Positions 8,557 to 31,170 of a stretch of 42,046 nucleotides of DNA are shown piece by piece. How positions within the stretch are numbered: position 1 is the stretch's first letter; every line of letters starts with the position of its first letter. Below the pieces are notes generated by a model, which did not search any database, had not been told where the DNA came from, and saw only the letters and a program-made list of their open reading frames with translations. The position numbers and the translations under genes are program-made. Source of the stretch: Chloroflexota bacterium (lineage in GTDB: Bacteria > Chloroflexota > Anaerolineae > Anaerolineales > UBA4823); NCBI GenBank assembly GCA_012798185.1, contig JAAZNS010000037.1, positions 1-42,046 on the forward strand. Reading direction: 5' to 3'.

Positions 8557-8579
8557 TTTCGACACTCCTCCAAAATTGG

Positions 8580-8607
8580 ATATTAGATTGCTTGGCTTTT
8601 CAGCCAA
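8580..8607 (-). promoter_or_regulatory. candidate internal sigma70-type promoter (TTGGCT-16 nt-TAATAT) ahead of the lipoprotein/ECF module 1 genes
   Basis: Read on the minus strand in the 113-nt gap after the SorC regulator gene. Only hexamer similarity supports it. Confidence 0.3.
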
Positions 8608-8625
8608 ATTGATTTTTTTACGGTC

Positions 8626-8648
8626 ATTGTCAAAAAAACATTGACAAT
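8626..8648. promoter_or_regulatory. inverted repeat ATTGTCAA-N7-TTGACAAT, possible operator
   Basis: Perfect 8-bp arms read directly from the sequence. It lies just upstream of the candidate promoter at 8580-8607. Confidence 0.3.
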
Positions 8649-8669
8649 TCTTTTGTTCGATCTTGCTTT

Positions 8670-9629: not shown

Positions 9630-9637
9630 AGCAACCT

Positions 9638-12955: not shown

Positions 12956-12958
12956 AAG

Positions 12959-14654: not shown

Positions 14655-14687
14655 GTCTTTCCTCCTTAGTCAAGAATTGTTTTCATC

Positions 14688-17303: not shown

Positions 17304-17369
17304 GCGTAATACTCCAATGTATAAAATTATTAATTGTTCAGGCTATGGTAGAAAGCCCCGAAACAACGA

Positions 17370-18101
17370 TTAATCTTCTTCTTCCTTTTCACTTTCATAG
17401 ATCATCTGACCAACCGGAATTGAAATTTTCGGCAGCCCGATTAGCAAAGGCGTCCCGACGATCGCAGCACCCAGAGCAAACAATATCCTTTGCACCGGAG
17501 CGATGACTAAAACTGCTGCCCATACTTCTTTGGGTAGAGCAAACATCAGCAATGCCCAAAAGTTGCCAGCTGACCATGTGCAAACGATCCCTGATAAAGT
17601 GGTTAGAAAAACACCAGCGAACATGAGACCCCGGTTTGGAGAGCTAATCCATTTTCCTCCCCAGAACCAGCCGACCAGGGCGGCAATCACGCCAACCAGA
17701 TATCCAATCGGGGTAAACCAGGCAGCTTGTCCCAAGGGAGAAAAATACCATACAATGCCAAACAATATCGTAACCGCAATGGGGATAAACCATTTGCGCT
17801 GCATCGCAAAACCAGCACAGGCAGCGCCGAGCATTGCCAGAATGAATTGGAATGGTCCAAAGATGACCGTGTGCGGCGCGATCAATTGTCCAATCAATCC
17901 ACCGATGCCAGCTGCGATGGCACCTGCCCACGGGCCAAATAACACGCCTGCCAGCGGTATCATTACGTCGCTGATGCTGAATGTTGCCCCAGTACCAATG
18001 ACAGGGATGGCTGGAAGCAGGCTGGCAACCGCAATAAGCGCTGCCCATACAGCCATCAGTGCTGGATGAGTTTTTACACGAACTGATTTTCTGTTTGCCA
18101 T
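17370..18101 (-). CDS. polytopic membrane protein, putative ECF S component, paralog 2
   Basis: 243 aa with RBS AAAGGAG upstream. It is directly downstream of the fused ECF ATPase and paralogous to 13926-14654. Confidence 0.6.
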   Translation of the reverse strand: MANRKSVRVKTHPALMAVWAALIAVASLLPAIPVIGTGATFSISDVMIPLAGVLFGPWAGAIAAGIGGLIGQLIAPHTVIFGPFQFILAMLGAACAGFAMQRKWFIPIAVTILFGIVWYFSPLGQAAWFTPIGYLVGVIAALVGWFWGGKWISSPNRGLMFAGVFLTTLSGIVCTWSAGNFWALLMFALPKEVWAAVLVIAPVQRILFALGAAIVGTPLLIGLPKISIPVGQMIYESEKEEED

Positions 18102-18231
18102 TTTGTGCTCCTTTATAAAATTTATAGATCGGATAATTTATCAGCGCGGGAGGAATGCAAAAATGCTATTCCCGCAAATACACTCCATGGTTTTCAACAT
18201 CAGATACGAATTTTCACCATTAACATCTCTG

Positions 18232-19989
18232 TCATTGGTTTCCGTTTTTGCCTAATCTTGCCAGTATCGTCTCATATACCTGCGACACCGATAATGGTGT
18301 CCGCGGCAAGCTAAGCTCTTCCGGCAGCATCTGGCACAACTCGGTTATTTGGGGTGGAATAATATGTGCCCGGCGTACCAATTCCGGTCTGGCAAAAACC
18401 CGTTCGGTGGAATCATCGATCAGAATTTCACCCTCGCACATGACGATTACACGGCGGGCATATTCAGCAACTAAAGCCATGTGATGGGTAACGAATACGA
18501 TAGTTCTTCCCTCTTCATGCAGCGAGCGGGCTATCTGCATAATCTGGTGGCATCCCTTATAATCCTGTCCGGTGGTCGGCTCATCCAAAACGATCACCTC
18601 CGGATTCAAAGCCAGAGCTGAAGCGATGACCACCTTAGCCCGTTCTCCCTTCGATAACGCTGGAGGAAATTCTTTCCGCTGGGCTTCTAAACCCACCAGC
18701 TTCAGCGCCTGCTCAAGCCGATCCTTTACAGTAGCCTCATCCAGCCCCAGGTTGCGTGGACCAAACGAAATTTCATCTTCCACCGTCTCTGCAAATAATT
18801 GCTGATCCGGGTTTTGCAAAACAAAGCCAACATGCTGGGCAAGCTCTGCTACAGCGGTGGTTTTGGTATCCATACCGGCTACCATCACGCTGCCCGAAGT
18901 GGGTTTCAACAAGCCTAACAGATTCTTCAATACTGTGGTTTTGCCGGAGCCATTTTGCCCGATGATGGCAACAAATTCTCCTTTATGAACGTCAAAAGTG
19001 ACATTCTTTACTGCTTTTACATCCTGAGGTTGGTAAACATAATCCAGATCTTTAACGCTGATAATTACATCATTTTGGGGTTTAGCTTCTACGCCGGTTA
19101 CGGCCTCCGGCTCCCGTTTCGGCGGTGAAGCCGGTTTATCTGCCAGTAATTCGATGATTCCCTGGCAGCCTTCTTCCAAACTTACCGGGAAGCTTTTCAG
19201 GGGATGCCCCGCTTGGCTTAATTTCATTCCAAGCTGTGAAACCTGCGGGGCGCGGATCATCAACCGGGAAAACAAAGCTGTATCAGAAAAGATTTGCCGC
19301 GGCGTTCCTTCTGCCACCAGACTGCCTTTATCCAATACCAAGACGCGATCGGCAAGTTTCGCCACCTCTTCGCTTTGATCGGTTGTCATAACAATAGTCA
19401 TGCCATATTTCTGGTTTAGTTCCTTCACCAGTGTAAGCACTTCCACCACCCCCAGCGGATCGACCTGGGAAGTGGCTTCATCGAGCACCAGTATCGAAGG
19501 GCGCATGGCAAGCGCTGCAGCGATTGCCAGCCGTTGTTTCTGCCCGCCTGATAGAGCTGTCGGCAACCGGTCCTCATATCCGGTAAGCCTGACGACATCC
19601 AGCACCCAGCGGATACGTTCTTTGATCTCCTCTACCGGAGAATTCAGGTTCTCCGGGCCAAAAGCCACTTCTGACCTGACCGACGTAGTAAACAATTGCG
19701 TTTCTGGGTCATCCAATACAATACCCACCCGTGTCGCCAGTTCGGCAATCGACGCTTCTTTAGTATTTAAACCCCCAACAATCACATCCCCTTTTAATCG
19801 ACCGCCCAACGAATTAGGGATTATTCCAATGATTATCTGGCACAGCGTGCTTTTTCCTGCCCCATTTTCGCCCATCACGGCTACAAATTCGCCTGGTTTT
19901 ACCGAAAAATCCAAATTATTAATCACATATTTATCGGTACGTGCGTAGCGATAAGATACCTGTTTCAATTCGATAGCATTGTTTGTCAT
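18232..19989 (-). CDS. fused double-cassette ECF/ABC ATPase (A-A' fusion, YkoD-like architecture)
   Basis: Two complete cassettes: GENGAGKST / LSGGQKQR / ILVLDEAT and GQNGSGKTT / LSKGERAK / VIVLDEPT, 585 aa. Confidence 0.9.
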   Translation of the reverse strand: MTNNAIELKQVSYRYARTDKYVINNLDFSVKPGEFVAVMGENGAGKSTLCQIIIGIIPNSLGGRLKGDVIVGGLNTKEASIAELATRVGIVLDDPETQLFTTSVRSEVAFGPENLNSPVEEIKERIRWVLDVVRLTGYEDRLPTALSGGQKQRLAIAAALAMRPSILVLDEATSQVDPLGVVEVLTLVKELNQKYGMTIVMTTDQSEEVAKLADRVLVLDKGSLVAEGTPRQIFSDTALFSRLMIRAPQVSQLGMKLSQAGHPLKSFPVSLEEGCQGIIELLADKPASPPKREPEAVTGVEAKPQNDVIISVKDLDYVYQPQDVKAVKNVTFDVHKGEFVAIIGQNGSGKTTVLKNLLGLLKPTSGSVMVAGMDTKTTAVAELAQHVGFVLQNPDQQLFAETVEDEISFGPRNLGLDEATVKDRLEQALKLVGLEAQRKEFPPALSKGERAKVVIASALALNPEVIVLDEPTTGQDYKGCHQIMQIARSLHEEGRTIVFVTHHMALVAEYARRVIVMCEGEILIDDSTERVFARPELVRRAHIIPPQITELCQMLPEELSLPRTPLSVSQVYETILARLGKNGNQ

Positions 19990-20007
19990 TGCGCTTCACT
20001 CATCTAC

Positions 20008-20814
20008 TTATATAATTGCTGCGGCGACCAGAATTGCTATAGTACCCAGAGTCGAAGCAATCATAAAAAACCAGTCCATTGGGCTGAGTTTAATATCTTC
20101 TATATAAGTGCGGGTTTTCATCGCGCCAAATGCCCGCGCGTCCATTGCCACCGCCATAGATTGGGCGCGCCGCATTGCACCAATAACCAATGGCGTTACT
20201 AAAACAGGGTATGATTTCAGCTTGCTCCAAATACTACCTTTTTCGAAAGTGCTCATGGCGCGTAATTTCTGAGCGTCGACAATTACCCCGATTTCGCTTT
20301 GCAAAATCGGCACCATGTTCAATGCCGCAGTGATTGTATAAGACAACCGGTATGGCAACCCCATGCGCACCATGCCCAAAGCCAGAATATGAACCGGCGT
20401 CGTCATGCTCACCAGCGGGAGCAAGATGACCATTGCCAGCAGGCGGAACATAAGCAAAACGGCAAATAAAATGCCCTCCAGGTTTACCTGCCCCATGCCG
20501 CCGATTAGTGGAATGAATTTGGGAATAAGCGGTTTTATGATCGGCGTAACCCCAGGGTAAAGAAGCGCCTGCACGATGAACAAAAAAATGAACACCGGCA
20601 AAAGGGCTTTCAGAAAGCCATAAACAATAGATGCAGGCAGCCGCGCCAGCAACCATAAAGCAACCATAACCACTAAGATAATGCCGGAAAGATACAGATT
20701 TTGAACAGCGAAAATAACTGTACTTACCAGCACCATAAAGACGATCTTGGTACGGGGATCTAGTTTATGGAAGAAAGTCTGCCCGGGAAAATATACAACA
20801 AGCGATTTACTCAA
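20008..20814 (-). CDS. ECF transporter transmembrane (T) component, CbiQ/EcfT family
   Basis: 268-aa multi-TM protein with FFHKLDPRTK N-terminus and AMDARAFGA coupling motif. Paralog of 5464-6270. Confidence 0.85.
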   Translation of the reverse strand: MSKSLVVYFPGQTFFHKLDPRTKIVFMVLVSTVIFAVQNLYLSGIILVVMVALWLLARLPASIVYGFLKALLPVFIFLFIVQALLYPGVTPIIKPLIPKFIPLIGGMGQVNLEGILFAVLLMFRLLAMVILLPLVSMTTPVHILALGMVRMGLPYRLSYTITAALNMVPILQSEIGVIVDAQKLRAMSTFEKGSIWSKLKSYPVLVTPLVIGAMRRAQSMAVAMDARAFGAMKTRTYIEDIKLSPMDWFFMIASTLGTIAILVAAAII

Positions 20815-20834: not shown

Positions 20835-22169
20835 TTAATATCGAAAAACTGCCCGGTTGGTATAAAGAGGCGCTTCGATAGCATCAACTTCGTCTAAGAT
20901 CGCCTCTTCATCGCAATTCACCAGCTTACGCTCCCGCATCACCACTTTTCCGTCGATAATCGTATCGCGCACGTCATTAGCCTTGGCGCAAAAAACCAGC
21001 TGCTCGATCAACCGGTCAGGGTGAAGAGGCCGTAAATGGGCACCTTTTAATTCTACGATTGCCAAATCTGCCAGCTTGCCCGGCTCGATTGTGCCTGCTT
21101 CCAGCCGGCAAACAGCTGCTGGAGCAACAGTTGCCATGCGAAAAGCATCGGCGGCGCTGAGGGCGCCGGCGTCATTATTGGAAACACGGGCTAACATAAT
21201 CGCTGCCCGCATCTCTTCCCACATATCCAATAAATCGTTAGAGGCAGCGCCATCGGTTGCAACGCTGACCGGAATTTGACGATTTATCATGGAGACAACC
21301 GGAGCAACGCCATCGGCAAGTTTCATATTGCTCTTTGGGCAGTGCACCACGTGGCAGCCCGAATCGGATAAGATTTGGATATCACGGTCGGAGACATGCA
21401 CACAATGCACAGCGCTTGTCCGGGAAGATAAAAGCTCTAGCCGATTCAAGCGCTCCACCGGCGTCATACCCCACTCATCCAGCGATTCTTTGACCTCACT
21501 AGCAATTTCCGAAACATGGATTTGAATCCCCAAATCCAGCGCTTCTGCCTGGTCGCGGCACCACACCAGTAAATTATCGTCACAGAGAAAAGGTGTGGAA
21601 GGCGCCACAAAAGCCTGTATCAATCCACCAGGTTCATGCCAGCGGTTAATAAACTGCAGCACTTTGCGGTGAGTTTCTTCATCCGAGGGATGGAATTCTT
21701 CTGGAATCCAACGGTTGGAAATGGTATAACCCGCTACCGAGCGAAAACCCAAATCACGCCAGGCATCCAATGTAGCATCTACGGTCAAATCCATATCCAG
21801 GCAGCAAGTAATCCCCCCTTTGATCATCTCGATAGCCGCTGCGGCAGACCATAAATATGCTGCCCGGTAATTATTGGTCTCAAACCCGCTGCGCAGCGCT
21901 CCAACCGTAGGAAATAAGACTTCATTGCACCAGGGTACCAGCGGCAAGCCAGGCGAGACACCCTTTAGAAAATTCTGGTAAAGGTGAGTATGGGCGTTGA
22001 TTAATCCCGGCATGACCACACAACCGCGGGCATCGATTTCGATCGAGTCATCGGGCGCAGGGATATTTTTCCCCACCGCTGCAATGCGCTTCCCGGAAAT
22101 GAGCACATCGCAGTCTTGCTCAATATGTTCCGGGTTACAAATGAGATAAGAAATTTTGCGAATGATCAT
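20835..22169 (-). CDS. COG0402-type metal-dependent amidohydrolase (MtaD / nucleobase-nucleoside deaminase / chlorohydrolase-like)
   Basis: INAHTHLYQ metal motif, HVSE, VHCVH, ATDGAASN, 444 aa. It is the first gene of the minus-strand array. Confidence 0.85.
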   Translation of the reverse strand: MIIRKISYLICNPEHIEQDCDVLISGKRIAAVGKNIPAPDDSIEIDARGCVVMPGLINAHTHLYQNFLKGVSPGLPLVPWCNEVLFPTVGALRSGFETNNYRAAYLWSAAAAIEMIKGGITCCLDMDLTVDATLDAWRDLGFRSVAGYTISNRWIPEEFHPSDEETHRKVLQFINRWHEPGGLIQAFVAPSTPFLCDDNLLVWCRDQAEALDLGIQIHVSEIASEVKESLDEWGMTPVERLNRLELLSSRTSAVHCVHVSDRDIQILSDSGCHVVHCPKSNMKLADGVAPVVSMINRQIPVSVATDGAASNDLLDMWEEMRAAIMLARVSNNDAGALSAADAFRMATVAPAAVCRLEAGTIEPGKLADLAIVELKGAHLRPLHPDRLIEQLVFCAKANDVRDTIIDGKVVMRERKLVNCDEEAILDEVDAIEAPLYTNRAVFRY

Positions 22170-22228
22170 GTATTGTTGAGAAAATTAATTAATAGGTCAG
22201 CGTGACATTTGCTCATAACATTTGATCG

Positions 22229-22266
22229 TTCAGTATCATCATAGTAACATTAATTAATACTGAACA
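22229..22266. promoter_or_regulatory. inverted repeat GTTCAGTAT-N20-ATACTGAAC, candidate operator
   Basis: Perfect 9-bp arms (22229-22237 and 22258-22266) read from the sequence. The arms bracket the candidate minus-strand promoter. Confidence 0.4.
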
Positions 22267-22270
22267 CAAC
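22242..22270 (-). promoter_or_regulatory. candidate promoter for the minus-strand array (TTGTGT-17 nt-TACTAT)
   Basis: Hexamers read on the minus strand about 70 nt upstream of the ATG at 22169. Confidence 0.3.
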
Positions 22271-22377
22271 TAGACGAATGTAATTCTCATTTTGTGATTT
22301 ATGTCATATTTGGGGTTGGTTTTTAGGGCGGTTTTTATTATTACATTCACTATTACTTTACAATAATCAAACATTAC

Positions 22378-22406
22378 TTGACAAAGCTTCTTCTCACCTA
22401 TATACT
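22378..22406 (+). promoter_or_regulatory. candidate sigma70-type promoter TTGACA-17 nt-TATACT for the XRE-cupin/AOR operon
   Basis: Consensus -35, 17-nt spacer and a near-consensus -10, about 70 nt upstream of the ATG at 22476. The -35 is overlapped by one copy of a repeated ATTAC(T/A)T motif (22340, 22352, 22373). Confidence 0.5.
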
Positions 22407-22475
22407 ATTTAAAAATATAATGCTGCCTCTTTTTATTGCCCTTTGCTGTCCATACGATTGAAAGGGAACTAATTA

Positions 22476-23012
22476 ATGATCGGAAAAAAGATATACGATC
22501 GCAGAAAAGAACTCAATATTAGCTTACGCACCCTGGGAAAGATGACCAATCTTTCTGCCAGTTTTTTAAGCCAGGTTGAAAACGACCTGACTTCACCTTC
22601 CATAAGCTCGCTGCAAGCGATTGCCACTGCTCTGCGAATCCCCATGTTCACTTTCCTGGACGACGACAACCAAACCGAAGTGGTGGTCCGCCGAGATGCA
22701 CGAAAAAAATTAAGCTTCCCACACTCACATATCGTCTATGAGCTGCTTACCAGCGATCTATCCCGCCAGATGATGGCTTTCTTGGTTCGGCTGGAGCCGG
22801 GGGCGCGTTATCAGGCGCAAAGGTTATATCGCCCCACTGAAGAATTGATGTATGTATTACAAGGCGAAATGGACATCTGCATTGGAGAACGGATTTATCG
22901 TTTGAATACAGGGGATTGTATCTACTACGACGGAATGCAATTGAAAGAATATACTTCGGTAGGTGAAAAAGAATTGTGTGTTCTGTGTTCCATGACTCCC
23001 CCTGCGCTCTAA
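22476..23012 (+). CDS. XRE-family HTH + C-terminal cupin domain transcriptional regulator
   Basis: N-terminal HTH_3 pattern (IYDRRKELNISLRTLGKMTNLSASFLSQVEN) and a C-terminal cupin beta-barrel-like region (EELMYVLQGEMDICIGE...GDCIYY). Confidence 0.85.
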   Translation: MIGKKIYDRRKELNISLRTLGKMTNLSASFLSQVENDLTSPSISSLQAIATALRIPMFTFLDDDNQTEVVVRRDARKKLSFPHSHIVYELLTSDLSRQMMAFLVRLEPGARYQAQRLYRPTEELMYVLQGEMDICIGERIYRLNTGDCIYYDGMQLKEYTSVGEKELCVLCSMTPPAL

Positions 23013-23030
23013 ATTTACGGGAAAATTATC

Positions 23031-24929
23031 ATGCCGCTGACTGCTTTCATTGACCTGACACGTTCAAAGATAACTATTGAAACCACCAATCCAGACTTGA
23101 TCCGGCGCTGGCTGGGCGGCCGCGGGTTAGGAGCAAGCCTTCTATACAAGTACGTTCATCCCAGCACCGACGCTTATTCTCCCGATAATTGCATCATATT
23201 TACCAGCGGGATCTTTAATGGCACCTCCTGGCCAACCGCTTCTCGATATCATGTCACCTTTAAATCCCCTGCCACCGATGCATATGGGTATGCCAATTCG
23301 GGCGGATTTTTCGGACCGGAATTACGCCGTGCGGGCTTCGATGCCTTGGTAATCACCGGCAAAGCTCCCGCACCGGTATTTCTGCGCATCATCGATCAGG
23401 ATATCCAAATTCATTCTGCACTGCATTTGTGGGGACTTCCAACATCGCAAACCGAGGATACTTTAGTTTCCGAAGCAGGCGGCAGGGTAGCAGCGATCGG
23501 TTTGGCAGGTGAAAACCTAGTGCGAATGGCTGCAATTATCAATGATAAGGGCAGAGCCGCTGCCCGAACGGGGCCAGGCGCTGTGATGGGCAGCAAAAAC
23601 CTGAAAGCCATCCAGATCATCGCCAGCGCTAAAGGACTGCCCACCTCGTCCGAATTCCATAATTTGACTAAACAAGCCTCTGACCGGCTGATCCACAGCC
23701 CAGATACCCAAGGGCTGATGAACAGCTCAACTTTGGTGCTCATGGCGATAAAGAATAAGATCGGCGATCTTCCAGCGAAAAATCACCAATACGGTCAGGT
23801 GCCATTTATCGATTCGCTGGATGATAAATCATTTAGTAATTACTGGACACGCCGCAAAGGCTGTGCTGTATGTTCTATTCGCTGCTCCCGGCAATCGGAG
23901 CTAAAAGACGGCGACCAGGTTATAAAAATCGAAGGCCCTGAATACGAAACCGCCGATTCATTCGGTCCGCTATGCTGGAATCCCGACCCCGAAGTAGTTA
24001 TTAAAGCAAACGCCCTGTGCAACGATTATGGGTTAGATAGTATATCAACCGGCGTCACCATCGCCTTTGCTATGGAATGCAATGAGCATGGCATTCTGAA
24101 TGACGATGATTTCTCGCTAGAGTGGGGTGATCCGCAAACCATACTCGGGTTAATCCAAAAAATCGCCGAACGCCAAGGCTTGGGCAGGCTGCTCAGCGAA
24201 GGTACGCTGCGCGCTGCCCGGCAGATCGGCAACGGTGCCGAGCAGTTTGCTATGCAGGTAAAAGGGGTGGAAATGCCCCGCCAGGAACCGCGCATCGCCA
24301 AAGCCTTTGGGCTGGGGCATGCCACCGGCAACCGTGGCGCTGACCACCTCTATGCTCTTCCCACTATCGATCTGGCAGGTCATTGGGAAGCTGCCCGGAA
24401 AATTTTCCCCAATGAAACACTGCCCTCCCTGATGGATATTGCCGATGAAACCTATAAAGCAGATGTTGTTATCTATGGCGAGAATTTTTGCGCCATCATC
24501 GATTCACTGGGCTTATGCAAATTCAGCACTGCCGAAACTTATGTGATTATGCCTGATGATCTAGCACAGGGGCTTCAGGCACTAGGGTTTGATTTTACCG
24601 GAGAAGAACTAATGGCGATCGGCGAACGGATCGTCAACTTGGAACGCCTTTACAACCAGAGGCATGGTTTCAATAAAAGACAGGATATCTTACCAGAGCG
24701 TTTCACCCAAGAAACGCTACCGGTTTTTTCATTTATTCGCAGCTCAGCCAACGAACCTTTACGGCAATCAAAAGAACCTATTGCTGTTGGTCTGATTTAC
24801 GATTTTGAAGCCATGATCAACCGCTACTATCAGCTGCGCGGCTGGGACGATCAGGGTCTACCCACCCCGCAAACACTGGCACGGCTGGGGATTAGCGATC
24901 TGGCTGTGAATAGAGGCAATTCATCATGA
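23031..24929 (+). CDS. aldehyde:ferredoxin oxidoreductase (AOR) family tungsto/molybdopterin enzyme, paralog 1
   Basis: 632 aa with [4Fe-4S] motif CAVCSIRC plus DSLGLC, and pterin-binding region EPRIAKAFGLGHATGNRGADHL. ATGA overlap with the next gene. Confidence 0.9.
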   Translation: MPLTAFIDLTRSKITIETTNPDLIRRWLGGRGLGASLLYKYVHPSTDAYSPDNCIIFTSGIFNGTSWPTASRYHVTFKSPATDAYGYANSGGFFGPELRRAGFDALVITGKAPAPVFLRIIDQDIQIHSALHLWGLPTSQTEDTLVSEAGGRVAAIGLAGENLVRMAAIINDKGRAAARTGPGAVMGSKNLKAIQIIASAKGLPTSSEFHNLTKQASDRLIHSPDTQGLMNSSTLVLMAIKNKIGDLPAKNHQYGQVPFIDSLDDKSFSNYWTRRKGCAVCSIRCSRQSELKDGDQVIKIEGPEYETADSFGPLCWNPDPEVVIKANALCNDYGLDSISTGVTIAFAMECNEHGILNDDDFSLEWGDPQTILGLIQKIAERQGLGRLLSEGTLRAARQIGNGAEQFAMQVKGVEMPRQEPRIAKAFGLGHATGNRGADHLYALPTIDLAGHWEAARKIFPNETLPSLMDIADETYKADVVIYGENFCAIIDSLGLCKFSTAETYVIMPDDLAQGLQALGFDFTGEELMAIGERIVNLERLYNQRHGFNKRQDILPERFTQETLPVFSFIRSSANEPLRQSKEPIAVGLIYDFEAMINRYYQLRGWDDQGLPTPQTLARLGISDLAVNRGNSS

Positions 24930-26299
24930 TATTCGACCTGGTCATAAGCGGCGGAAAATTAGTTACGGCAAGTACAACGTATACCTCTGATATTGGTATT
25001 AACGGTGAAACAATCGCTGCAATTGGCGAGGGACTGCAGGGAAAAGAGGTCATCGATGCAAGGGGTAAACTGGTGATCCCTGGCGCTATCGACCCTCACG
25101 TGCACCTGGAAATGCCGGTTGGCGATACCTTTTCCGCCGATGACTGGGCAAGCGGCACTCTCGCAGCTGCCTGCGGTGGTGTGACGACTGTGATTGATTT
25201 CGTCGAGCCCGAACCAGACGAAGTCCTTATTGCTGCACTGCAAAAACGCCTGGAGTCTGCTAAGGGTAAGGCTGTCATTGACTATGGCTTGCACATGACC
25301 CTGCGCAACGATCACCCCGATACTTTAAACCAGATACCTGCTGTAGTTGCTGAAGGCTGCCCGTCATTCAAAACTTACCTCACCTATGAGGGTTTTGCAT
25401 TGAGCGATAAAGCATTTCTCAACGTGTTAGAAGCAGTGGGTAAAGCGCGTGGTATGGTGCTGGTGCATGCAGAAAATGATGCTATTGTCTCCTATTGCAC
25501 TCGACAAATGATCGAGAAGGGAAAAACATCACCAGGCGCTCATGCATTGGCAAGACCTGCCATTGCCGAAATGGCAGCAATCCAAAACTCCTTAGCGCAT
25601 GCAGAAGTGACCGGAACGCCGCTCTATATTGTCCATATTTCCACAGCCGGCGGCACATCAGCCCTGGAGGCTGCCCATTTACGCGGGATAACCGCCTACG
25701 GCGAAACCTGCCCTCAATATCTCACCCTGACTGAAGACAAGTACGATCTGCCCAATTTCGAAGGAGCAAAATATGTCTGCTCACCGCCGCTGCGCCAAAA
25801 AAATGATCAAGAAACCTTATGGCGGGGATTGGCGAAAGGCGTACTGCAAACCGTGGGCAGCGATCACTGTCCCTTTAATTTCAATGGACAAAAGGATAAA
25901 GGCAGAGATTCCTTCGTTAACATTCCGCCCGGCTTGCCAGGCATCGAAATTCGCCTGGCACTGCTGTTTACTTTTGGGGTTAAGAAAGGGCATATTTCAA
26001 TAAACCGCTGGGTAGATTGCTGCGCATCCAGCCCAGCACGCTTATTCGGGTTATACCCGCGCAAAGGTCATTTGATCCCCGGCGCTGACGCCGATATCGT
26101 GATTTTCGATCCCGATAAAGAGATCGTTGTAACGAAGGCGGTACTTCACGAACGCGTTGACTACACACCCTACGAAGGTATAAAACTTCAGGGCTACCCG
26201 GTGATGACCATATTACGTGGAAAATCCTTAGTCATCGAAAATGAATATATTGGAACCGCTGCACATGGTCAGTTCCTAAAACGGCAGGTATACCAATGA
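24926..26299 (+). CDS. dihydropyrimidinase / D-hydantoinase family cyclic amidohydrolase
   Basis: 457 aa with DPHVHLE, SFKTYLTY (carboxylated-Lys context), VHAEN, YIVHIS and GSDHCPF. Confidence 0.9.
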   Translation: MIFDLVISGGKLVTASTTYTSDIGINGETIAAIGEGLQGKEVIDARGKLVIPGAIDPHVHLEMPVGDTFSADDWASGTLAAACGGVTTVIDFVEPEPDEVLIAALQKRLESAKGKAVIDYGLHMTLRNDHPDTLNQIPAVVAEGCPSFKTYLTYEGFALSDKAFLNVLEAVGKARGMVLVHAENDAIVSYCTRQMIEKGKTSPGAHALARPAIAEMAAIQNSLAHAEVTGTPLYIVHISTAGGTSALEAAHLRGITAYGETCPQYLTLTEDKYDLPNFEGAKYVCSPPLRQKNDQETLWRGLAKGVLQTVGSDHCPFNFNGQKDKGRDSFVNIPPGLPGIEIRLALLFTFGVKKGHISINRWVDCCASSPARLFGLYPRKGHLIPGADADIVIFDPDKEIVVTKAVLHERVDYTPYEGIKLQGYPVMTILRGKSLVIENEYIGTAAHGQFLKRQVYQ

Positions 26300-26835
26300 A
26301 GCGTCTGGTAATCTATCCCGAATTATGCAGCGGGTGTTCTGCCTGCGAAGTTTTTTGCTCTCTTCACCATGAAGGCAAGGTCAATCCCGAGCTTTCCCGC
26401 ATTCATGTAATCAAAGATGAAGCACACGCGGCATTTCTCCCGGTCGTTTGTGTATCCTGTAAAAATAAAGCCTGCCTGGCAGCCTGCCCTGAGCAGGGAG
26501 CAATTTATATCAATCACCTGGGTATGACGGTGATCGAAGAAACGCTGTGTACCGGCTGCAGTAAATGCGCACAAGCTTGTGAAATTCACGCCATCCGGTT
26601 TTTCAAGCAAAGCGGGCGTGGAAAATGGGGTAAAGCATTTTGTTTTAAATGCGACCTTTGTGCAGGTGACCCTATCTGTGTTAAAGCCTGTCCGCAGGGC
26701 GCGTTGGCTGTCAAAGATATCGCGGATGACGGCGAGGCAGCACAAAATCTCTATGAACAGCTTCGCCAGGAATGCACACGCATCATCGAGTGGCTGGACG
26801 AACGCAGCCTGGTGAAAAATCGGAGGGCTGTATGA
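26296..26835 (+). CDS. four-cluster 4Fe-4S ferredoxin-type electron-transfer subunit (AorA/DmsB-like)
   Basis: Four Cys motifs: CSGCSACEVFC, CVSCKNKACLAACP, CTGCSKCAQAC and CFKCDLC...CVKACP. ATGA overlaps on both sides. Confidence 0.9.
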   Translation: MKRLVIYPELCSGCSACEVFCSLHHEGKVNPELSRIHVIKDEAHAAFLPVVCVSCKNKACLAACPEQGAIYINHLGMTVIEETLCTGCSKCAQACEIHAIRFFKQSGRGKWGKAFCFKCDLCAGDPICVKACPQGALAVKDIADDGEAAQNLYEQLRQECTRIIEWLDERSLVKNRRAV

Positions 26836-28820
26836 CCTTTGTATATAAAGGATATGGCGGGTCATACCTGAGGGTTAATCTAACGACGCGCCAGATCAAT
26901 AAATTTCCTCTAGCCAATGAGTGGGTGGAAAATTTCCTGGGCGGCAATGGCATCGGGACGAAAATTCTTTGGGATGAAGTTCCCGAAATAGCCAGTCCGC
27001 TTGGTCCAGATAACAAGTTGATTATTGCAACCGGACCATTATGCGGAAGCCCCATGCCCAACTCGGGCAGGGTGGAATTTATTGCGAAATCGCCGCTTAC
27101 CGGCATATACGGCGACGCCAATGCCGGCGGTCAATTCGGTCCCGAACTCAAAAGCGCTGGTTATGATGTGATCATTTTCGAAGGTCAATCTGATGAACCG
27201 GTTTATCTGGATATTCATGATGACGACGTAGCACTGCGTTCAGCTGAGGAGTTATGGGGATTGGGCACCTTCGAAGCCGAGGCGCGCCTGCAAGCCATTC
27301 ATAAAGATTCGCGTCTTAAAACTGCGCTGATTGGTCCCGCCGGAGAAAATCTGGTGCGCTTTGCCGGTATACAGGTCAGTTACCGCCGCAGTGCGGCGCG
27401 CTGTGGTTTGGGGGCGGTGATGGGTTCCAAGAAATTAAAGGGTGTGGCAGTGCGTGGTACAAAAGGGATTGCCTTTAGCTGTCCCCAAGAGCTTGAAGAG
27501 TTATCCCTGGAGATGCATAAAAAACTCCGCCAAAATGAGTTTTTTGCCGGCATTCATCAATTTGGCACCTCCGGTCTGGTAGCCCTGATGCAGCCTATTG
27601 GACGTTTCCCCACCCAAAATTTCCGCCTGGGTCATTTCGAGGGTTTTGAAGCCATTTCCGGCGAAGTATTGCGGGAAGAGCATCTGGTAAAAGATATCGC
27701 TTGTTTCAACTGCCCGCTGGGTTGCGACAAGATGTATTCTGTGATATCGGGTGAATTTGCTGGCTGCCGTATTTCCAGTGTTGAATATGAAACCCTTAAC
27801 GCTCTGGGGGCGCGCGTCTGCAATCGAAATCTACCTGCTCTGCTGAAAGCCAACGAAATCTGTGATGATCTGGGTTTGGATACAATCTCAGCTGGGAACA
27901 CTATCGCCTTTGCTATGGAACTGGCAGATTTTGGTATTTGGAATGCCAATGAGTTAAATGGATTAGATTTAAGCTGGGGGAACTACCACAGCATACTCCA
28001 GCTGCTGCATGATATGGCATACCGGCAGGGTTTTCTGGGCGACCTGTTGGCAGATGGCGCTGCCCGGGCAGCAAAATGGCTGGGACGCAATGCCGATCGT
28101 TACGCCATGCATGTAAAAGGTCAGGATATCCCTGCCCAGGATGGGCGCGCTCAGCAATCAATGGGATTGGCGCATGTCACCTCGTCACGCGGGGCAGATC
28201 ATCTAAAAGCTTTTCCTACTATCGATGAAACAGGTTACCCCAGTGAAGCCGTGCGCCGTTATGGCGATCAATACCTGCCCGAGCTGGTCGATCCTCTGGC
28301 AACTAAATATAAAGCCATGCTGGTGAAGGATGGTGAAGATTTTGGCGCTGTTGTCGATTCGAGCGGCAACTGTAAATCTGGGGGCACTTTTGTCATGGCA
28401 GAAATTTACTGGCAGGAGCAAGCCGATGCCATCGCTGCCGCCACAGGCATGCTGATGACCAGCAGGAATCTCCGCTGCATTGGTGAAAGGATTTATAATC
28501 TTCAGCGCTGTTATAATGCAATTCACGGCATCACTTCTGCTGACGATGTGCTGCCATGGCGGTTCACGCAAGCACCATCGCCTTCTGGCAATGCCCGCGG
28601 CAGTGTTTGCCGATTGGATCTTATGCTTCCAGATTATTATGCTGCCCGCGGCTGGAATCCGGAAGATGGTTTGCCAACTCAAGCTACCCTGCAACGTCTT
28701 GGACTTGATCAGGCTTGGAAATATATGCAGCAAATAATCAATTCCGGAAAAGCCAAAATCATTCGCTCTCAGCTTGGCTGGGCGGAACCATACACCAAAA
28801 AAATGGTCGAGCAAGAATGA
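26832..28820 (+). CDS. AOR-family tungsto/molybdopterin enzyme, paralog 2 (AorB-like)
   Basis: I start at the ATG at 26832, which has GGAGGG 4 nt upstream and an ATGA overlap with the ferredoxin stop, rather than the track start 26772. Motifs are CFNCPLGC, DSSGNC and GLAHVTSSRGADHL. 662 aa. Confidence 0.9.
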   Translation: MTFVYKGYGGSYLRVNLTTRQINKFPLANEWVENFLGGNGIGTKILWDEVPEIASPLGPDNKLIIATGPLCGSPMPNSGRVEFIAKSPLTGIYGDANAGGQFGPELKSAGYDVIIFEGQSDEPVYLDIHDDDVALRSAEELWGLGTFEAEARLQAIHKDSRLKTALIGPAGENLVRFAGIQVSYRRSAARCGLGAVMGSKKLKGVAVRGTKGIAFSCPQELEELSLEMHKKLRQNEFFAGIHQFGTSGLVALMQPIGRFPTQNFRLGHFEGFEAISGEVLREEHLVKDIACFNCPLGCDKMYSVISGEFAGCRISSVEYETLNALGARVCNRNLPALLKANEICDDLGLDTISAGNTIAFAMELADFGIWNANELNGLDLSWGNYHSILQLLHDMAYRQGFLGDLLADGAARAAKWLGRNADRYAMHVKGQDIPAQDGRAQQSMGLAHVTSSRGADHLKAFPTIDETGYPSEAVRRYGDQYLPELVDPLATKYKAMLVKDGEDFGAVVDSSGNCKSGGTFVMAEIYWQEQADAIAAATGMLMTSRNLRCIGERIYNLQRCYNAIHGITSADDVLPWRFTQAPSPSGNARGSVCRLDLMLPDYYAARGWNPEDGLPTQATLQRLGLDQAWKYMQQIINSGKAKIIRSQLGWAEPYTKKMVEQE

Positions 28821-29098
28821 TCACTGTTACCGTGAAATTATTCAATTTATTAGCGATTTACGCAGGCATAAAAACACAATCCTTCGATCTTGCCGAAGGG
28901 ATAACTATCAAACAATTGCTTGAACGTATGGTCCATGAGTACCCGGCCCCATTTAAAGATATGATATACCATCACGAAAAAATCAACCCCCATTTGCGCA
29001 TTTTTTTGAACGAGCATTTACTTAATGAAAGCGAACTCGATGCAGCACTTTCGGATGGAGATAAACTGATGCTCTTTCCTGCCATTGCCGGAGGATAA
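28817..29098 (+). CDS. MoaD/ThiS-family ubiquitin-like small protein with C-terminal Gly-Gly
   Basis: 93 aa starting MITVTVKLF and ending PAIAGG-stop. ATGA overlap with the AOR2 stop. The track start 28715 is an in-frame upstream extension inside AOR2. Confidence 0.75.
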   Translation: MITVTVKLFNLLAIYAGIKTQSFDLAEGITIKQLLERMVHEYPAPFKDMIYHHEKINPHLRIFLNEHLLNESELDAALSDGDKLMLFPAIAGG

Positions 29099-29103
29099 AT
29101 GCC

Positions 29104-30426
29104 ATGATCAACCGCATCATCCTTCCCGAATGGCTGATTACGAGTGGTTTGGAAAAACCACAGCAAAAGCGGGGAATACGCCTCTGTGGCGACAAAATTG
29201 CCGATATCGATGCAAACGAAGCATTGCAGCGCAAATATCCCCATGATGAAATCTGGCTGGCATCGGGGCAGGTGCTTAGCCCAGGGTTTGTAAACAGCCA
29301 CACCCACCTGTATGGTGTGCTGGCGCATGGCATTCCCTTACACAACGCCCCCGAAGGCTTTTGGCACTTTCTCAAAGATTTCTGGTGGCTGCAGGTTGAA
29401 GACCGTCTGGATCACGCCATGATCCGGGCTGCAGCAGATTGGCAATGCGCACTAATGCTGCGCAGCGGCATCACTTCGTTTTATGATTGTCTGGAAGCCC
29501 CCAATGCCATTCCAGGATGTCTCAATGTGATTAAAGACGTGGTCGAAAGACATGGATTACGAGCCATCCTATCCTTCGAAGCCACCGAGCGGATAAGCGC
29601 TAATAATGGGCAGCTTGGGCTTTCGGAAAACGAACAATTTATCAAGGACTGTCAAAAATTCCCCAGCCTGGTTTCAGGAATGATGTGTTTCCATACCACA
29701 TTTACCTGTTCGGCAGATTTCATCCGCCAGGCATTCCATATTGCCAACACCCTGGATGCCAGCGTGCATATGCACTGCTCCGAAGGAGCATACGAACCGG
29801 CGTATGCCTTGGAGCATTTTGGAATGCGCCCTATTCAATATTATGAGAAGCTGGGTGTACTAAGAGAAAATATGCTGGCTTCTCAATGCGTTCACCTGGA
29901 CAATGAGGAGATTGCGCTGATCGCAAAAAGAGGCGGGCGTGTCGCCCATATGCCGCTCTCCAATTGCGAGGTGGGTGGCGGTATTGCTCCCGTTCCACAA
30001 ATGATCGCTGCGAATATCACCCTGGGCTTGGGCAGCGACAGCTATATCGATGATTTCTTCGAGGTCATGCGCGGAGCATTTTTAATTCATAAAGCCAGCC
30101 AGCAAGATCCCCGTATCATGCCTGCTAACCTGGTATGGCATTTGGCAACCGAAGGCGGCGCCAAAGCTTTGGGGCTGGATAAAGTAGGCAGGATCGAACC
30201 GGGCTGGCACGCTGATTTGCAATTAATCGAGCTTGATTTTCCCACACCCGTCGAAGATTGGAATATTTTCGATCAGCTGCTGCTATATGGCAATCGGTTT
30301 TCAGTAAAAAGTGTTTTCGTTAATGGAGAGCTGCTAGTGAAAGACGGATGCCTCCTACGCGTGAATGAGCAAGAAGTAAAAGAGACCTGCCGCATTCAGG
30401 CGCAAAGATTATGGGGTTCTCATTGA
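29104..30426 (+). CDS. COG0402-type amidohydrolase (SsnA/chlorohydrolase-like by eye)
   Basis: VNSHTHLYGVLAHG, MHCSEG, CVHL and LGSDSY motifs, 440 aa, GGAGGA RBS upstream. Confidence 0.8.
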   Translation: MINRIILPEWLITSGLEKPQQKRGIRLCGDKIADIDANEALQRKYPHDEIWLASGQVLSPGFVNSHTHLYGVLAHGIPLHNAPEGFWHFLKDFWWLQVEDRLDHAMIRAAADWQCALMLRSGITSFYDCLEAPNAIPGCLNVIKDVVERHGLRAILSFEATERISANNGQLGLSENEQFIKDCQKFPSLVSGMMCFHTTFTCSADFIRQAFHIANTLDASVHMHCSEGAYEPAYALEHFGMRPIQYYEKLGVLRENMLASQCVHLDNEEIALIAKRGGRVAHMPLSNCEVGGGIAPVPQMIAANITLGLGSDSYIDDFFEVMRGAFLIHKASQQDPRIMPANLVWHLATEGGAKALGLDKVGRIEPGWHADLQLIELDFPTPVEDWNIFDQLLLYGNRFSVKSVFVNGELLVKDGCLLRVNEQEVKETCRIQAQRLWGSH

Positions 30427-30432
30427 CCGGGT

Positions 30433-31170
30433 ATGCCTCCTGCTAACGATTATCCTACCCTTTACCACGCCCACCATAATCGTCAACTTGAAGATCTCCC
30501 TTTTTGGCTGCATTTGGCAAAACAGCTTGGAAGCCCCATCCTCGAACTGGGCTGCGGCACCGGTCGCATCTTTACACCCATACACAGAGCCGGATATCGG
30601 ATTACCGGCATCGATCATGATCCCGTCATGCTGGCATATTTACTTCAAAACTGGGTTGCGCATGAGCCACCGGATCTCATCCAGGCAGAGATGACTGACT
30701 TTGCTCTGGCGCCGGTTTTCCGTCTGGTGATCTTACCCTGCAACACTTACAGTACACTGCAAGCAGCACAGCGCCAACAAACATTGAAATGCGTTCGGCG
30801 CTGCCTGCTGGCTGGAGGGGTGTTTGCCATCAGCATGCCCAATCCCAATATACTAAAACGCCTACCAACTGAATCTACTTCCGAAATTGAAGATATTTTT
30901 GCTCACCCGAATGATGGCGAACCGGTTCAGGTAAGCAGCGCCTGGCAAAGAGAATTATTAACCTTTTCATTGACCTGGCACTATGATCACTTGTTACCCG
31001 ATGGGCATGTAGAAAGAACCACCGCACACTCCCGCCAATTCATGGAGGACTTGAATAATTATATGCAGGAATTTCACCAGGCAGGTTTCAGCGATGTGAA
31101 AGTCTTTGGCAATTTCGATAAAACCCCTTATGACGACGATTCTCCAGGTTTGATATTTACTGCCCGATAA
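30433..31170 (+). CDS. class I SAM-dependent methyltransferase
   Basis: Motif I LELGCGTGRI followed by GIDHD, 245 aa, 6-nt gap after the upstream gene. Confidence 0.8.
   Translation: MPPANDYPTLYHAHHNRQLEDLPFWLHLAKQLGSPILELGCGTGRIFTPIHRAGYRITGIDHDPVMLAYLLQNWVAHEPPDLIQAEMTDFALAPVFRLVILPCNTYSTLQAAQRQQTLKCVRRCLLAGGVFAISMPNPNILKRLPTESTSEIEDIFAHPNDGEPVQVSSAWQRELLTFSLTWHYDHLLPDGHVERTTAHSRQFMEDLNNYMQEFHQAGFSDVKVFGNFDKTPYDDDSPGLIFTAR

Follow-up and report, generated by a model that had tools for sequence, protein, structure and literature searches.

The window analyzed here, i.e. the whole stretch of DNA under study, comprises 42,046 nt of contig JAAZNS010000037.1 (assembly GCA_012798185.1, positions 1 to 42,046) from a bacterium of the phylum Chloroflexota, order Anaerolineales, and has a G+C content of ~48%. 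Between positions 22476 and 31170 it contains eight open reading frames (ORFs), all transcribed in the same direction, among them genes for two proteins of the aldehyde oxidoreductase (AOR/WOR) family, termed AOR1 and AOR2, and for two amidohydrolases. The coordinates of the ORFs were rechecked, and domains were assigned with Pfam and NCBIfam. The distinguished genes are as follows.

22476..23012, plus strand: regulator with an XRE-type helix-turn-helix and a cupin domain (HTH_3 and Cupin_2; PuuR-like architecture)
23031..24929, plus strand: AOR1, AOR/WOR family, 632 aa; AFOR_N (PF02730) 239.6 bits, AFOR_C (PF01314) 392.4 bits
24926..26299, plus strand: D-hydantoinase/dihydropyrimidinase, a HyuA-type cyclic amidohydrolase; TIGR02033 (IPR011778) 518 bits, above the cut-off of 393
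26296..26835, plus strand: polyferredoxin of the AorA type, 179 aa, with four [4Fe-4S] cysteine motifs
26832..28820, plus strand: AOR2, AOR/WOR family, 662 aa from the ATG at 26832; AFOR_N 265.1 bits, AFOR_C 407.9 bits
28817..29098, plus strand: MoaD/ThiS-like small protein, 93 aa, with a C-terminal GG
29104..30426, plus strand: SsnA-like COG0402 amidohydrolase with NSHTHLY at residue 64; SsnA is the best-scoring family
30433..31170, plus strand: class I S-adenosylmethionine (SAM) methyltransferase, an accessory gene

The genes are tightly packed, with ATGA stop/start overlaps at 24926, 26296, 26832 and 28817 and with gaps of 18, 5 and 6 nt at the other junctions. An earlier note on this DNA had described these eight packed genes, the four overlaps, gaps of no more than 18 nt and a set of protein motifs, and all of this was reproduced on rechecking. 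The motifs lie at defined residues, i.e. CAVCSIRC at 278, GNRGADH at 433 and DSLGLC at 491 of AOR1, and DPHVHLE at 56, SFKTY at 147, VHAEN at 180 and GSDHCPF at 311 of the hydantoinase.

The cupin domain of the XRE-cupin regulator is probably a small-molecule sensor, and a gene of this type also heads the operon in seven related loci (L001, L004, L005, L098, L158, L105 and L088; sampling is described below). The hydantoinase shares 38% identity with E. coli HyuA; its nearest solved relatives are Bacillus D-hydantoinases, and it is of the generic D-hydantoinase/dihydropyrimidinase type. Judged from this homology, its probable role is to open the hydantoin or dihydropyrimidine ring that remains after a first ring cleavage. 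The SsnA-like amidohydrolase is the probable enzyme of that first ring opening. SsnA models (IPR017700/TIGR03314) score best for it, yet under their cut-offs (273 versus 444 and 250 versus 455.5); its identity to E. coli SsnA is 28%, and it has no close solved homologue. The best solved homologues of the polyferredoxin are partner subunits of AORs, namely AorA (8c0z_C, 87 bits), 9mqx_E and the WOR5 beta subunit 6x6u_B. Its gene runs 4 nt into the start of AOR2, and the protein is the predicted electron-transfer partner of AOR2. The MoaD-like protein presumably takes part in maturation of the metallopterin cofactor, as in other AOR operons.

A reductive pathway of uric acid degradation via 2,8-dioxopurine was published in 2025 (PMC12507026; bioRxiv 10.1101/2025.04.24.650524). 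In this pathway XdhD-YgfM converts urate to 2,8-dioxopurine by dehydroxylation, the product is dearomatised by YgfK or by the PydA-like UacX (PF01180 plus FeS), SsnA opens the ring to give ureidomethylhydantoin or 5-ureido-dihydrouracil, HyuA forms 2,3-diureidopropionate, and YgeW/UacY, YgeY and YgeX lead to pyruvate (PMC12507026; bioRxiv 10.1101/2025.04.24.650524). Four reducing equivalents are required. Neighbourhoods of ssnA in Chloroflexota were assigned to the uricolytic family; they lack XdhD, YgfK and UacX and have a luciferase-family enzyme instead, and no replacement for the XdhD step was offered for them (PMC12507026). The words tungsten and ferredoxin oxidoreductase are absent from both of these reports, AORs are not referred to in PMC12507026, and the words purine and heterocycle are absent from a 2025 review of the AOR family (PMC12096430). 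The full-text literature searched, outside which most subscription journals lie, contained no paper tying AOR or tungsten enzymes to a dihydropyrimidinase, a hydantoinase, a purine amidohydrolase, dioxopurine or yanthine.

The operon shares with the 2,8-dioxopurine clusters (E. coli ygeW-xdhD; C. difficile and C. sporogenes) a pair of SsnA-type and HyuA-type amidohydrolases and an anaerobic setting, and a COG0402 deaminase is adjacent, as is guaD in E. coli. In relatives of the operon the likeness extends to a UacX- or luciferase-type reductase directly after the SsnA-like gene and to YgeW-like and M20 genes nearby. Unlike those clusters, it has two AORs, a polyferredoxin and a MoaD-like protein instead of XdhD-YgfM/XdhABC, and its uptake system is an energy-coupling factor (ECF) transporter, not an NCS2 permease. 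Among the larger ORFs scanned in the window we found neither enzymes with a DHO_dh domain of the dihydropyrimidine dehydrogenase (DPD) type nor enzymes of the xanthine dehydrogenase (XDH) type, in keeping with the statement of the earlier note that no DPD-type and no Mo/Se XDH-type enzyme is encoded. The window also contains no UacX-like, luciferase-like or YgfK-like ring reductase, and no homologue of YgeW, YgeY or YgeX. No tungstate transporter was recognised and no selenium-related genes were seen in it.

Conservation of the operon was followed in two samples. In the first, one genome per species was scanned with the AOR1 alignment, which gave 80 loci; homologues of the window proteins and of recurrent families foreign to the window were located in them by tblastn, and counts refer to a distance of 10 kb. 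The second, independent sample consists of 80 metagenomic loci anchored on proteins with 57-64% identity to the SsnA-like amidohydrolase. The gene order of the window recurs in L001, L005, L098 and L158, at 63-84% AOR1 identity, so the operon is conserved and the juxtaposition of its genes is not a matter of chance. At least one purine-type gene lies within 10 kb of AOR1 in 53 of 64 loci of the AOR1 clade, versus 1 of 13 control loci with a canonical AOR (36-40% identity). The 64 loci contain SsnA-like (37), UacX-like (DHO_dh plus two Fer4 domains; 35), AOR2-type (28) and hydantoinase (25) genes, followed by the Mo subunit of XDH (15), a YgeW-like carbamoyltransferase of the OTCace type (14) and M20 (11); sugar-type genes were found in 19. 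Pfam matches back the identities of these partners: DHO_dh plus two Fer4 domains (the UacX architecture), OTCace (YgeW type), M20 (YgeY type) and Bac_luciferase. The families around AOR1 and AOR2 correspond to the set of the 2,8-dioxopurine pathway.

Loci of the AOR1 clade span the Chloroflexota, Thermotogota, Bipolaricaulota, Atribacterota, Spirochaetota, Bacillota, Neomarinimicrobiota and Bathyarchaeia. A contiguous block of AOR1, AOR2, SsnA-like and DHO_dh/FeS genes occurs in the Thermotogota (L033 and L046), Neomarinimicrobiota (L040) and Atribacterota (L047), and a similar block without a DHO_dh/FeS match in the Bipolaricaulota (L055); in a locus of the Bathyarchaeia (L053) AOR1, AOR2 and the SsnA-like gene stand together on mixed strands. 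The operon is a real and widely conserved module. Given the frequencies of 53/64 and 1/13 and these blocks in distant phyla, the link between AORs and amidohydrolases is itself conserved. The earlier note had proposed to look for this conservation in the pairing of AOR with hydantoinase; the hydantoinase, however, varies from locus to locus. The hydantoinase gene is absent from the locus of Longilinea (L004), from L008, L030, L040 and L055 and from other loci, and we have rejected it as the constant or defining partner of the AORs. In the metagenomic sample it occurs in 38 of 80 loci; among the 16 loci whose sequence extends for 5 kb or more to either side of the SsnA-like gene, 14 contain it. 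The hydantoinase is therefore primarily the partner of the SsnA-like enzyme.

It is the SsnA-like amidohydrolase, together with a reductase of the UacX-like or luciferase-like kind, that constantly accompanies the AORs. In L004, L098 and L158 the gene after the SsnA-like one is luciferase-like, and in L087 and many other loci it is UacX-like; neither kind is found there in L001 and L005, as in the window. The SAM methyltransferase gene at the end of the operon is shared with the closest relative, L001, only, and in other relatives its slot holds a luciferase-like or UacX-like reductase. Since a methyltransferase gene fills this slot in the window and in its closest relative, this operon does not include the ring reductase. 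None of the loci showed a homologue of YgeX.

A gene for a UbiD-family (prenyl-FMN) decarboxylase lies beside the SsnA-like gene in 12 of the 80 metagenomic loci (L094, L117, L129, L132, L133, L136, L138, L144, L150, L152, L153 and L156) and near AOR1 in 8 of 64 loci (for example at 934-2280 of L036). This recurrence hints at a decarboxylation step outside the published pathway.

Enzymes of the XDH type were found in some relatives at the position that the ferredoxin and AOR2 hold in the window. The order of genes is AOR1-XDH(FAD)-XDH(Mo)-MoaD in L009, L011 and L014 (L009 also has a 2Fe-2S XDH subunit), compared with AOR1-(hydantoinase)-ferredoxin-AOR2-MoaD in the window, and in relatives the MoaD-like gene comes after AOR2 or after the XDH genes. 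Loci L105 and L088 have the divergent architecture of the window, with genes for an FGGY kinase, an aldolase, a zinc-dependent alcohol dehydrogenase (Zn-ADH), an FAD/FeS/CCG enzyme and a deaminase on one side and those for the regulator, hydantoinase and SsnA-like protein on the other; their operon continues with luciferase-like, YgfM-like and fused 2Fe2S+Mo XdhD-like genes instead of AOR1, ferredoxin and AOR2. Within 4 kb of AOR1, AOR2-type genes were found in 27 loci, XDH-type genes in 7 and both in none (hypergeometric P=0.017, with related loci treated as independent); within 10 kb the corresponding numbers are 28, 14 and 2 (P=0.011, on the same assumption). Around the SsnA-like genes of the 80 metagenomic loci there are nine AOR pairs and 17 XDH genes, and no locus has both. 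This mutual exclusion and the exchange at one position suggest that AOR2 with its ferredoxin and the XDH-type enzyme are alternatives.

In L105 and L088 the YgfM-like and XdhD-like genes are followed by a gene of a third AOR clade (L105 16129-18051; L088 16218-18122), with 32-34% identity and with His and Asp at positions 427 and 447 in the numbering of the Pyrococcus furiosus AOR (PfAOR). Each variant has two metallopterin enzymes: AOR1 and AOR2, AOR1 and XDH, or the third-clade AOR and XdhD. The third-clade gene of L105 is followed at 18177-19280 by a gene for a dehydrogenase of the Ldh_2 family, which resembles sulfolactate and ureidoglycolate dehydrogenases.

AOR2 has the cluster position of XdhD-YgfM and the Se-dependent Mo hydroxylases (DOPDH, purine hydroxylase and xanthine dehydrogenase), with which it is mutually exclusive, and the formal chemistry is alike, the conversion of an sp2 C-H to C-OH corresponding to the aldehyde/acid interconversion at a metallopterin centre. 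The folds are unrelated, and the cofactors differ: a bis-metallopterin W/Mo centre with a [4Fe-4S] cluster in AORs, as opposed to Mo-molybdopterin (MPT) or its cytosine dinucleotide form (MCD), two [2Fe-2S] clusters and FAD.

The closest homologues of AOR1 come from metagenome-assembled genomes (MAGs) of Anaerolineales/Anaerolineae, with 99% identity in an SRA assembly, 84% in GCA_040960625.1 and 78% in an Anaerolineales MAG, and from the cultured Longilinea arvoryzae (62%). Among solved structures, those nearest to AOR1 and AOR2 are AORs sensu stricto (394-441 bits), then FOR (247 and 321 bits), BamB (190 and 213 bits) and WOR5 (168 and 224 bits), the comparison with BamB and WOR5 being one of HMMER bit scores only. 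The match to PfAOR (1AOR) scores 394 bits for AOR1 and 397 bits for AOR2, and the best solved homologues of AOR2 are 9mqx, 9g7j, PfAOR and AorB. We constructed a neighbour-joining tree of 125 sequences (100 bootstraps), in which GAPOR, GOR, WOR4, WOR5 and BamB sequences were not included. AOR1 falls into a clade of 63 members (bootstrap 99) and AOR2 into a clade of 38 (bootstrap 86; a core of 31 has bootstrap 100), and PfAOR, AorB, 9mqx, 9g7j, FOR and YdhV lie outside both. Distances from AOR1 and AOR2 are 1.04-1.35 to AOR-type references, 1.28-1.54 to FOR and 1.72-1.82 to YdhV. The two proteins are 1.22 apart, PfAOR and FOR 1.11, and canonical AORs among themselves 0.66, so that either protein is separated from PfAOR about as far as FOR is. 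Within this tree and its limited references, neither protein groups with the characterised AORs (PfAOR, AorB, 9mqx and 9g7j) or is nested among proven aldehyde oxidoreductases, a placement that the earlier note had named as speaking against its proposal. AOR1 and AOR2 would thus, against this reference set, represent two new AOR subfamilies.

The canonical AORs of the tree cluster with those of rhamnose-type loci of other Chloroflexota (L071-L083, e.g. L073 8184-11776 and L081 9364-11768), which are 36-40% identical to AOR1/AOR2 and have 9mqx as their nearest solved relative. Their neighbours, read from the sequence, encode a rhamnulokinase-like FGGY protein, an L-rhamnose-isomerase-like protein, a MoaD-like protein and a class II aldolase. 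These loci look like deoxy-sugar clusters, in which the AOR would oxidise lactaldehyde.

AOR1 and AOR2 share with PfAOR the two-domain AFOR architecture, the cysteine ligands of the [4Fe-4S] cluster (PfAOR positions 288, 291, 295 and 494, retained in 63/63 AOR1 and 38/38 AOR2 sequences) and Thr243, Glu311, Tyr312, Glu313 and His448, all invariant in both clades. They differ from it at several positions of the active site. Tyr427 is replaced by Gln in all 63 and all 38 sequences and Cys447 by Asp throughout both clades, Trp316 has become Asp in AOR1 and Asn in AOR2, and Tyr452 has become Leu and Phe, respectively; AOR1 alone has Tyr for Lys450 and Lys for Ile250. Thr243, Glu313, Tyr427 and His448 form the conserved second shell of aldehyde-oxidising members, Tyr427 has been proposed to position the aldehyde, and changes of this residue are tied to altered function, i.e. 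Trp in WOR4 (no aldehyde activity) and His in WOR5/ASOR (sulfonate chemistry) (PMC12096430). Both clades retain the Thr, Glu and His of this shell and have Gln at 427. The substitutions of Cys447 and Trp316 add polar groups that, together with Gln427, would fit a heterocycle bound by hydrogen bonds.

Pairing of an AOR catalytic subunit with a four-cluster polyferredoxin is known from AorAB(C) of Aromatoleum aromaticum, WOR1 and WOR5/ASOR, and is found here in the order ferredoxin-AOR2-MoaD. Unlike AorAB(C), the operon lacks both an FAD subunit (AorC) and a bifurcating module; AOR2 belongs to a separate clade, position 427 is Gln in AOR2, Tyr in AorB and His in WOR5, and the genomic partners are amidohydrolases, not genes of aromatic or aldehyde metabolism. 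To our knowledge, all characterised enzymes of the AOR family have aldehydes/acids, sulfonates or benzoyl-CoA as substrates.

BamB, the AOR-family subunit of class II benzoyl-CoA reductase, also works with a polyferredoxin and shows that aromatic ring reduction is possible within the family (PMC12096430). The earlier note had pointed to BamB and had named ring reduction as one possible role of one or both AORs. An AOR acting in this manner could take the place of the missing UacX-, YgfK- or luciferase-type reductase, and the downstream ends of the operons in the window, L001 and L005 would leave room for such an activity. The sequences and their context speak clearly against it: in neither clade is there a Cys at PfAOR positions 306-316, where the W ligand of BamB (Cys322) and YdhV is placed, the second-shell residues lost in BamB are kept, and no solved relative is farther from AOR2 than BamB, and only one is farther from AOR1 (190/213 bits, compared with 394-441 for AORs). 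The operon contains a single polyferredoxin and no HdrA-like or NuoF-like genes, hence none of the BamC-I partner subunits of the bifurcating Bam complex. Finally, the AORs co-occur with a UacX gene (35 of 64 loci of the AOR1 clade) or with a luciferase-like gene (L004, L098 and L158). We have rejected ring reduction of the BamB type on the grounds of ligand, second shell and UacX co-occurrence, and consider it highly improbable here.

We propose that the operon constitutes the ring-activating and ring-opening part of an anaerobic degradation of purine-type N-heterocycles, as a tungsten-type variant of the 2,8-dioxopurine pathway in which ferredoxin-AOR2, with or without AOR1, would replace XdhD-YgfM. 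In our judgement this account is evenly poised between right and wrong. The regulon would degrade a purine that is probably delivered as a nucleoside. The ECF transporter of the divergent operon would import the substrate, the COG0402 deaminase, a relative of adenosine/MTA deaminases, would strip the amino group, and sugar-type enzymes would handle the sugar moiety. Ferredoxin-AOR2, matured with the MoaD-like protein, and probably AOR1 would take the place of XdhD-YgfM and XDH and determine how the ring is oxidised, either by hydroxylating a C-H position or by dehydroxylating a lactam, with electrons passing via the four-cluster polyferredoxin; in E. coli the same job falls to XdhABC, which hydroxylates, and XdhD, which dehydroxylates at C6. 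Ring reduction would come next, catalysed by a reductase that is not encoded in this window and that in relatives may be the UacX-like or luciferase-like protein encoded after the SsnA-like gene. By homology with characterised enzymes, the first ring would then be opened by the SsnA-like amidohydrolase and the second by the hydantoinase.

Conversion of a lactam/lactim C-OH to C-H corresponds formally to the AOR reaction run in reverse, from acid to aldehyde. Such a dehydroxylation would suit a low-potential, ferredoxin-linked tungsten centre. Two AORs acting on the ring and linked through a single polyferredoxin could also turn xanthine into 2,8-dioxopurine in a redox-neutral manner, hydroxylation at C8 being coupled to dehydroxylation at C6. 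A more specific form of the proposal, possible although clearly short of even probability, is that AOR2 and perhaps AOR1 are tungsten-dependent purine hydroxylases/dehydroxylases, which would make them the first AOR-family enzymes to act on C-H/C-OH of an N-heterocycle and replacements of the Mo/Se enzyme XdhD in many uncultured anaerobes, those of the Chloroflexota, Thermotogota, Atribacterota, Bipolaricaulota and Bathyarchaeia among them. From homology and gene context we infer the direct action of the AORs on the heterocycle, the identity of the substrate, the direction and site of the AOR reactions, the use of W rather than Mo, and the division of labour between the two AORs.

Several observations weigh against this proposal. 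The SsnA-like enzyme stays under the model cut-offs and matches E. coli SsnA at only 28% of residues, so its heterocycle could be one other than 2,8-dioxopurine. The ring reductase (UacX-, luciferase- or YgfK-like), YgeW, YgeY and YgeX are missing from the window, and YgeX was seen in none of the loci. Both AORs keep the full catalytic set of Glu313, His448 and Thr243, with which aldehyde oxidation remains compatible, and their sequences do not distinguish W from Mo. The tests of anticorrelation treat related loci as independent. XdhD-like and third-clade AOR genes share an operon in L105 and L088, and AOR1 occurs with XDH in L037 and L052; therefore AOR1, at least, is not a simple substitute for XDH.

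A different N-heterocycle might also be the substrate, for instance a pyrimidine, a modified nucleobase or a compound of the pteridine, lumazine or flavin type, with the AORs as ring hydroxylases or reductases and the SsnA-like protein and the hydantoinase as paralogues of shifted specificity. The distance of the SsnA-like protein from SsnA and from any solved structure is consistent with this idea, and so is the affinity of the hydantoinase to generic D-hydantoinases/dihydropyrimidinases. Proteins resembling formylmethanofuran:H4MPT formyltransferase (FTR), methenyl-H4MPT cyclohydrolase (MCH) and luciferases (Mer-type fold) are encoded repeatedly in the vicinity of the module, the ECF S components described below are weakly of the riboflavin type (PF07155), and UacX, hydantoinase and M20 together resemble PydA, PydB and PydC of pyrimidine reduction. 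However, only a PydB-type enzyme is found in the window, and in relatives the PydA-like UacX and M20 occur alongside SsnA-like and XDH-type genes, which point to purines. In metagenomes the SsnA-like clade (57-64% identity) often adjoins XdhD/YgfM-like, XDH-like, YgeW-like and M20 genes, i.e. the purine-type set, the amidohydrolase encoded divergently is closest to deaminases of the adenosine, methylthioadenosine (MTA) and S-adenosylhomocysteine (SAH) type, and the SsnA clusters of Chloroflexota have been placed in the uricolytic family (PMC12507026). We regard a different heterocycle as improbable.

The plus-strand operon faces a long string of minus-strand genes across a short control region. 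The features of this part of the window are listed below; the last two entries lie beyond the string.

22170..22475, no strand assigned: divergent control region, 306 nt, between the COG0402 amidohydrolase and regulator genes
20835..22169, minus strand: divergent COG0402 amidohydrolase; nearest solved relatives are MTA/SAH/adenosine-type deaminases
20008-20814, minus strand: ECF T component
18232-19989, minus strand: ECF fused A/A' ATPase
17370-18101, minus strand: ECF S component
14688..17303, minus strand: FAD-linked oxidase fused to FeS and CCG domains, GlcD/GlcF- or HdrD-like, 871 aa
13926-14654, minus strand: second, paralogous ECF S component
12959-13897, minus strand: PfkB, ribokinase-like
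11933-12955, minus strand: Zn-ADH
11137-11940, minus strand: DhnA-type class I aldolase
9638-11140, minus strand: FGGY kinase, xylulokinase-like
8670-9629, minus strand: SorC-type regulator
8065-8673, minus strand: Oxidored_molyb (sulfite-oxidase-fold) protein of ~200 aa, at the end of the string
5464-7970: second ECF energising module, with a T component and two single ATPases (the module at 13926-20814 has a T component and a fused A/A')
3632-4654: ADP-ribosylglycohydrolase-family protein

Within the control region, a near-consensus, sigma-70-like promoter (TTGACA-17-TATACT, 22378-22406) is oriented towards the plus-strand operon. The palindromic decamer ATTAATTAAT occurs twice, at 22184-22193 and 22249-22258, in identical, self-complementary copies that are 55 nt apart and lie just upstream of the start of the divergent amidohydrolase gene. 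These palindromes are candidate operators for the XRE-cupin regulator. The divergent amidohydrolase, whose position and 306-nt spacer bear out the earlier description of a second COG0402 deaminase-type gene, probably deaminates an aminopurine or an aminopurine nucleoside, as judged from its nearest relatives. It accompanies the module in other phyla (L040, L046, L055, L056 and L058), and the FAD/FeS/CCG enzyme, fused or split, is its conserved companion in L040, L046, L056, L058, L088 and L105. The ECF transporter (17370..20814) is the probable route of substrate uptake, and its synteny is kept in L001, L004, L005, L098 and L158; both S components match the riboflavin-type S family PF07155 weakly (E values of 3e-10 and 2e-9).

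Homologues of FTR and MCH, confirmed with Pfam, are encoded in L040 (587-2466), L046 (1943-3843), L029 (8853-9833) and L087 (40-999). In the Thermotogota, Neomarinimicrobiota and Chloroflexota these genes adjoin the AOR module and stand directly upstream of those for a COG0402 deaminase and a split FAD/FeS/CCG enzyme. One idea is that their products help to open an amidine or imidazole ring and deal with the formyl group.

The sugar-type genes at 8065..13897 probably process a sugar moiety and are a possible source of aldehyde; genes of this kind recur near the module. A deoxyribose aldolase of the DeoC type, considered as a source of acetaldehyde, found no support, the aldolase being of the DhnA type. 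A small Oxidored_molyb protein is also encoded directly upstream of AOR1 in three loci of Chloroflexota (L018 415-795, L019, and L023 3095-4032). Beyond the minus-strand string lie the second ECF module, the ADP-ribosylglycohydrolase-family gene and genes for a xylose-isomerase-like TIM barrel and ABC permeases. An ADP-ribosylglycohydrolase gene stands beside pfkB in L040, L046 and L056, and the two families recur with the module. The pairing resembles YegU/YegV of E. coli and points to uptake of the substrate in the form of a nucleoside or another ribosylated compound. Downstream of the plus-strand operon there are unrelated housekeeping genes. A baeRF family 10 (bacterial eRF1-like) gene at 34451-35551 beside a DnaJ-like gene has no relation to the operon.

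These sugar-type genes bear on the strongest rival explanation, in which the AORs are ordinary aldehyde oxidoreductases that supply the pathway with electrons and leave the heterocycle untouched. The DhnA-type aldolase might cleave the sugar part of a nucleoside and so set free, for example, glycolaldehyde, acetaldehyde or lactaldehyde, or an aldehyde might arise at a late stage of base degradation. Low-potential electrons would flow through the polyferredoxin to ferredoxin, to hydrogen production or to the reductive purine steps, and the known pathway does consume four reducing equivalents (PMC12507026). Ribokinase-like and xylulokinase-like kinases, Zn-ADH and a class I aldolase are all present in the divergent operon and recur in 19 of 64 loci, conservation extends to Glu313, His448, Thr243, Tyr312 and every cluster cysteine, and in other Chloroflexota (L071-L083) a canonical AOR and MoaD stand in rhamnose-type clusters with a class II aldolase, an apparent case of such a use of AORs within the phylum. 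The presence of AOR1 or the third AOR clade alongside XDH-type enzymes (L037, L052, L105 and L088) can be read in the same way. On the other hand, both clades have Gln throughout in place of Tyr427, the residue proposed to position the aldehyde, and the association with purine-type genes (53/64) is far more frequent than that with sugar-type genes (19/64). The AOR block is contiguous in L033, L047 and L055 (in the last without a DHO_dh/FeS match) with no sugar-type markers detected, and the exclusion between AOR2 and XDH fits a shared catalytic role better than electron supply. On balance we consider a role in electron supply rather unlikely, while ranking it first among the alternatives.

Compared with the sequence of deamination, tungsten enzyme and hydrolytic ring opening that the earlier note had outlined as an undescribed pathway, the purine-type partners and the alternation of AOR2 with XDH fit such an order, and the role of the tungsten enzyme in it may be direct chemistry on the ring or aldehyde oxidation for electron supply. 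The frame of the pathway has been known since 2025, when the 2,8-dioxopurine route was reported, and what looks new is the involvement of AORs. The data suggest, without proving, a role of AORs in nucleobase degradation.

According to our proposal, two new AOR subfamilies with an altered active site would fill the XdhD gap in gene clusters of many phyla of sediments and the subsurface. The cultured isolate Longilinea arvoryzae KOME-1 carries the cluster (L004) in the order regulator-AOR1-ferredoxin-AOR2-MoaD-SsnA-like-luciferase-like, which makes the question directly testable. If the AORs act on the ring, the reaction scope of tungsten enzymes would be wider and would offer ferredoxin-linked catalysts of low potential for C-H chemistry on lactams and heteroaromatics, and this would explain how nucleobases from necromass may be fermented without Mo/Se hydroxylases.

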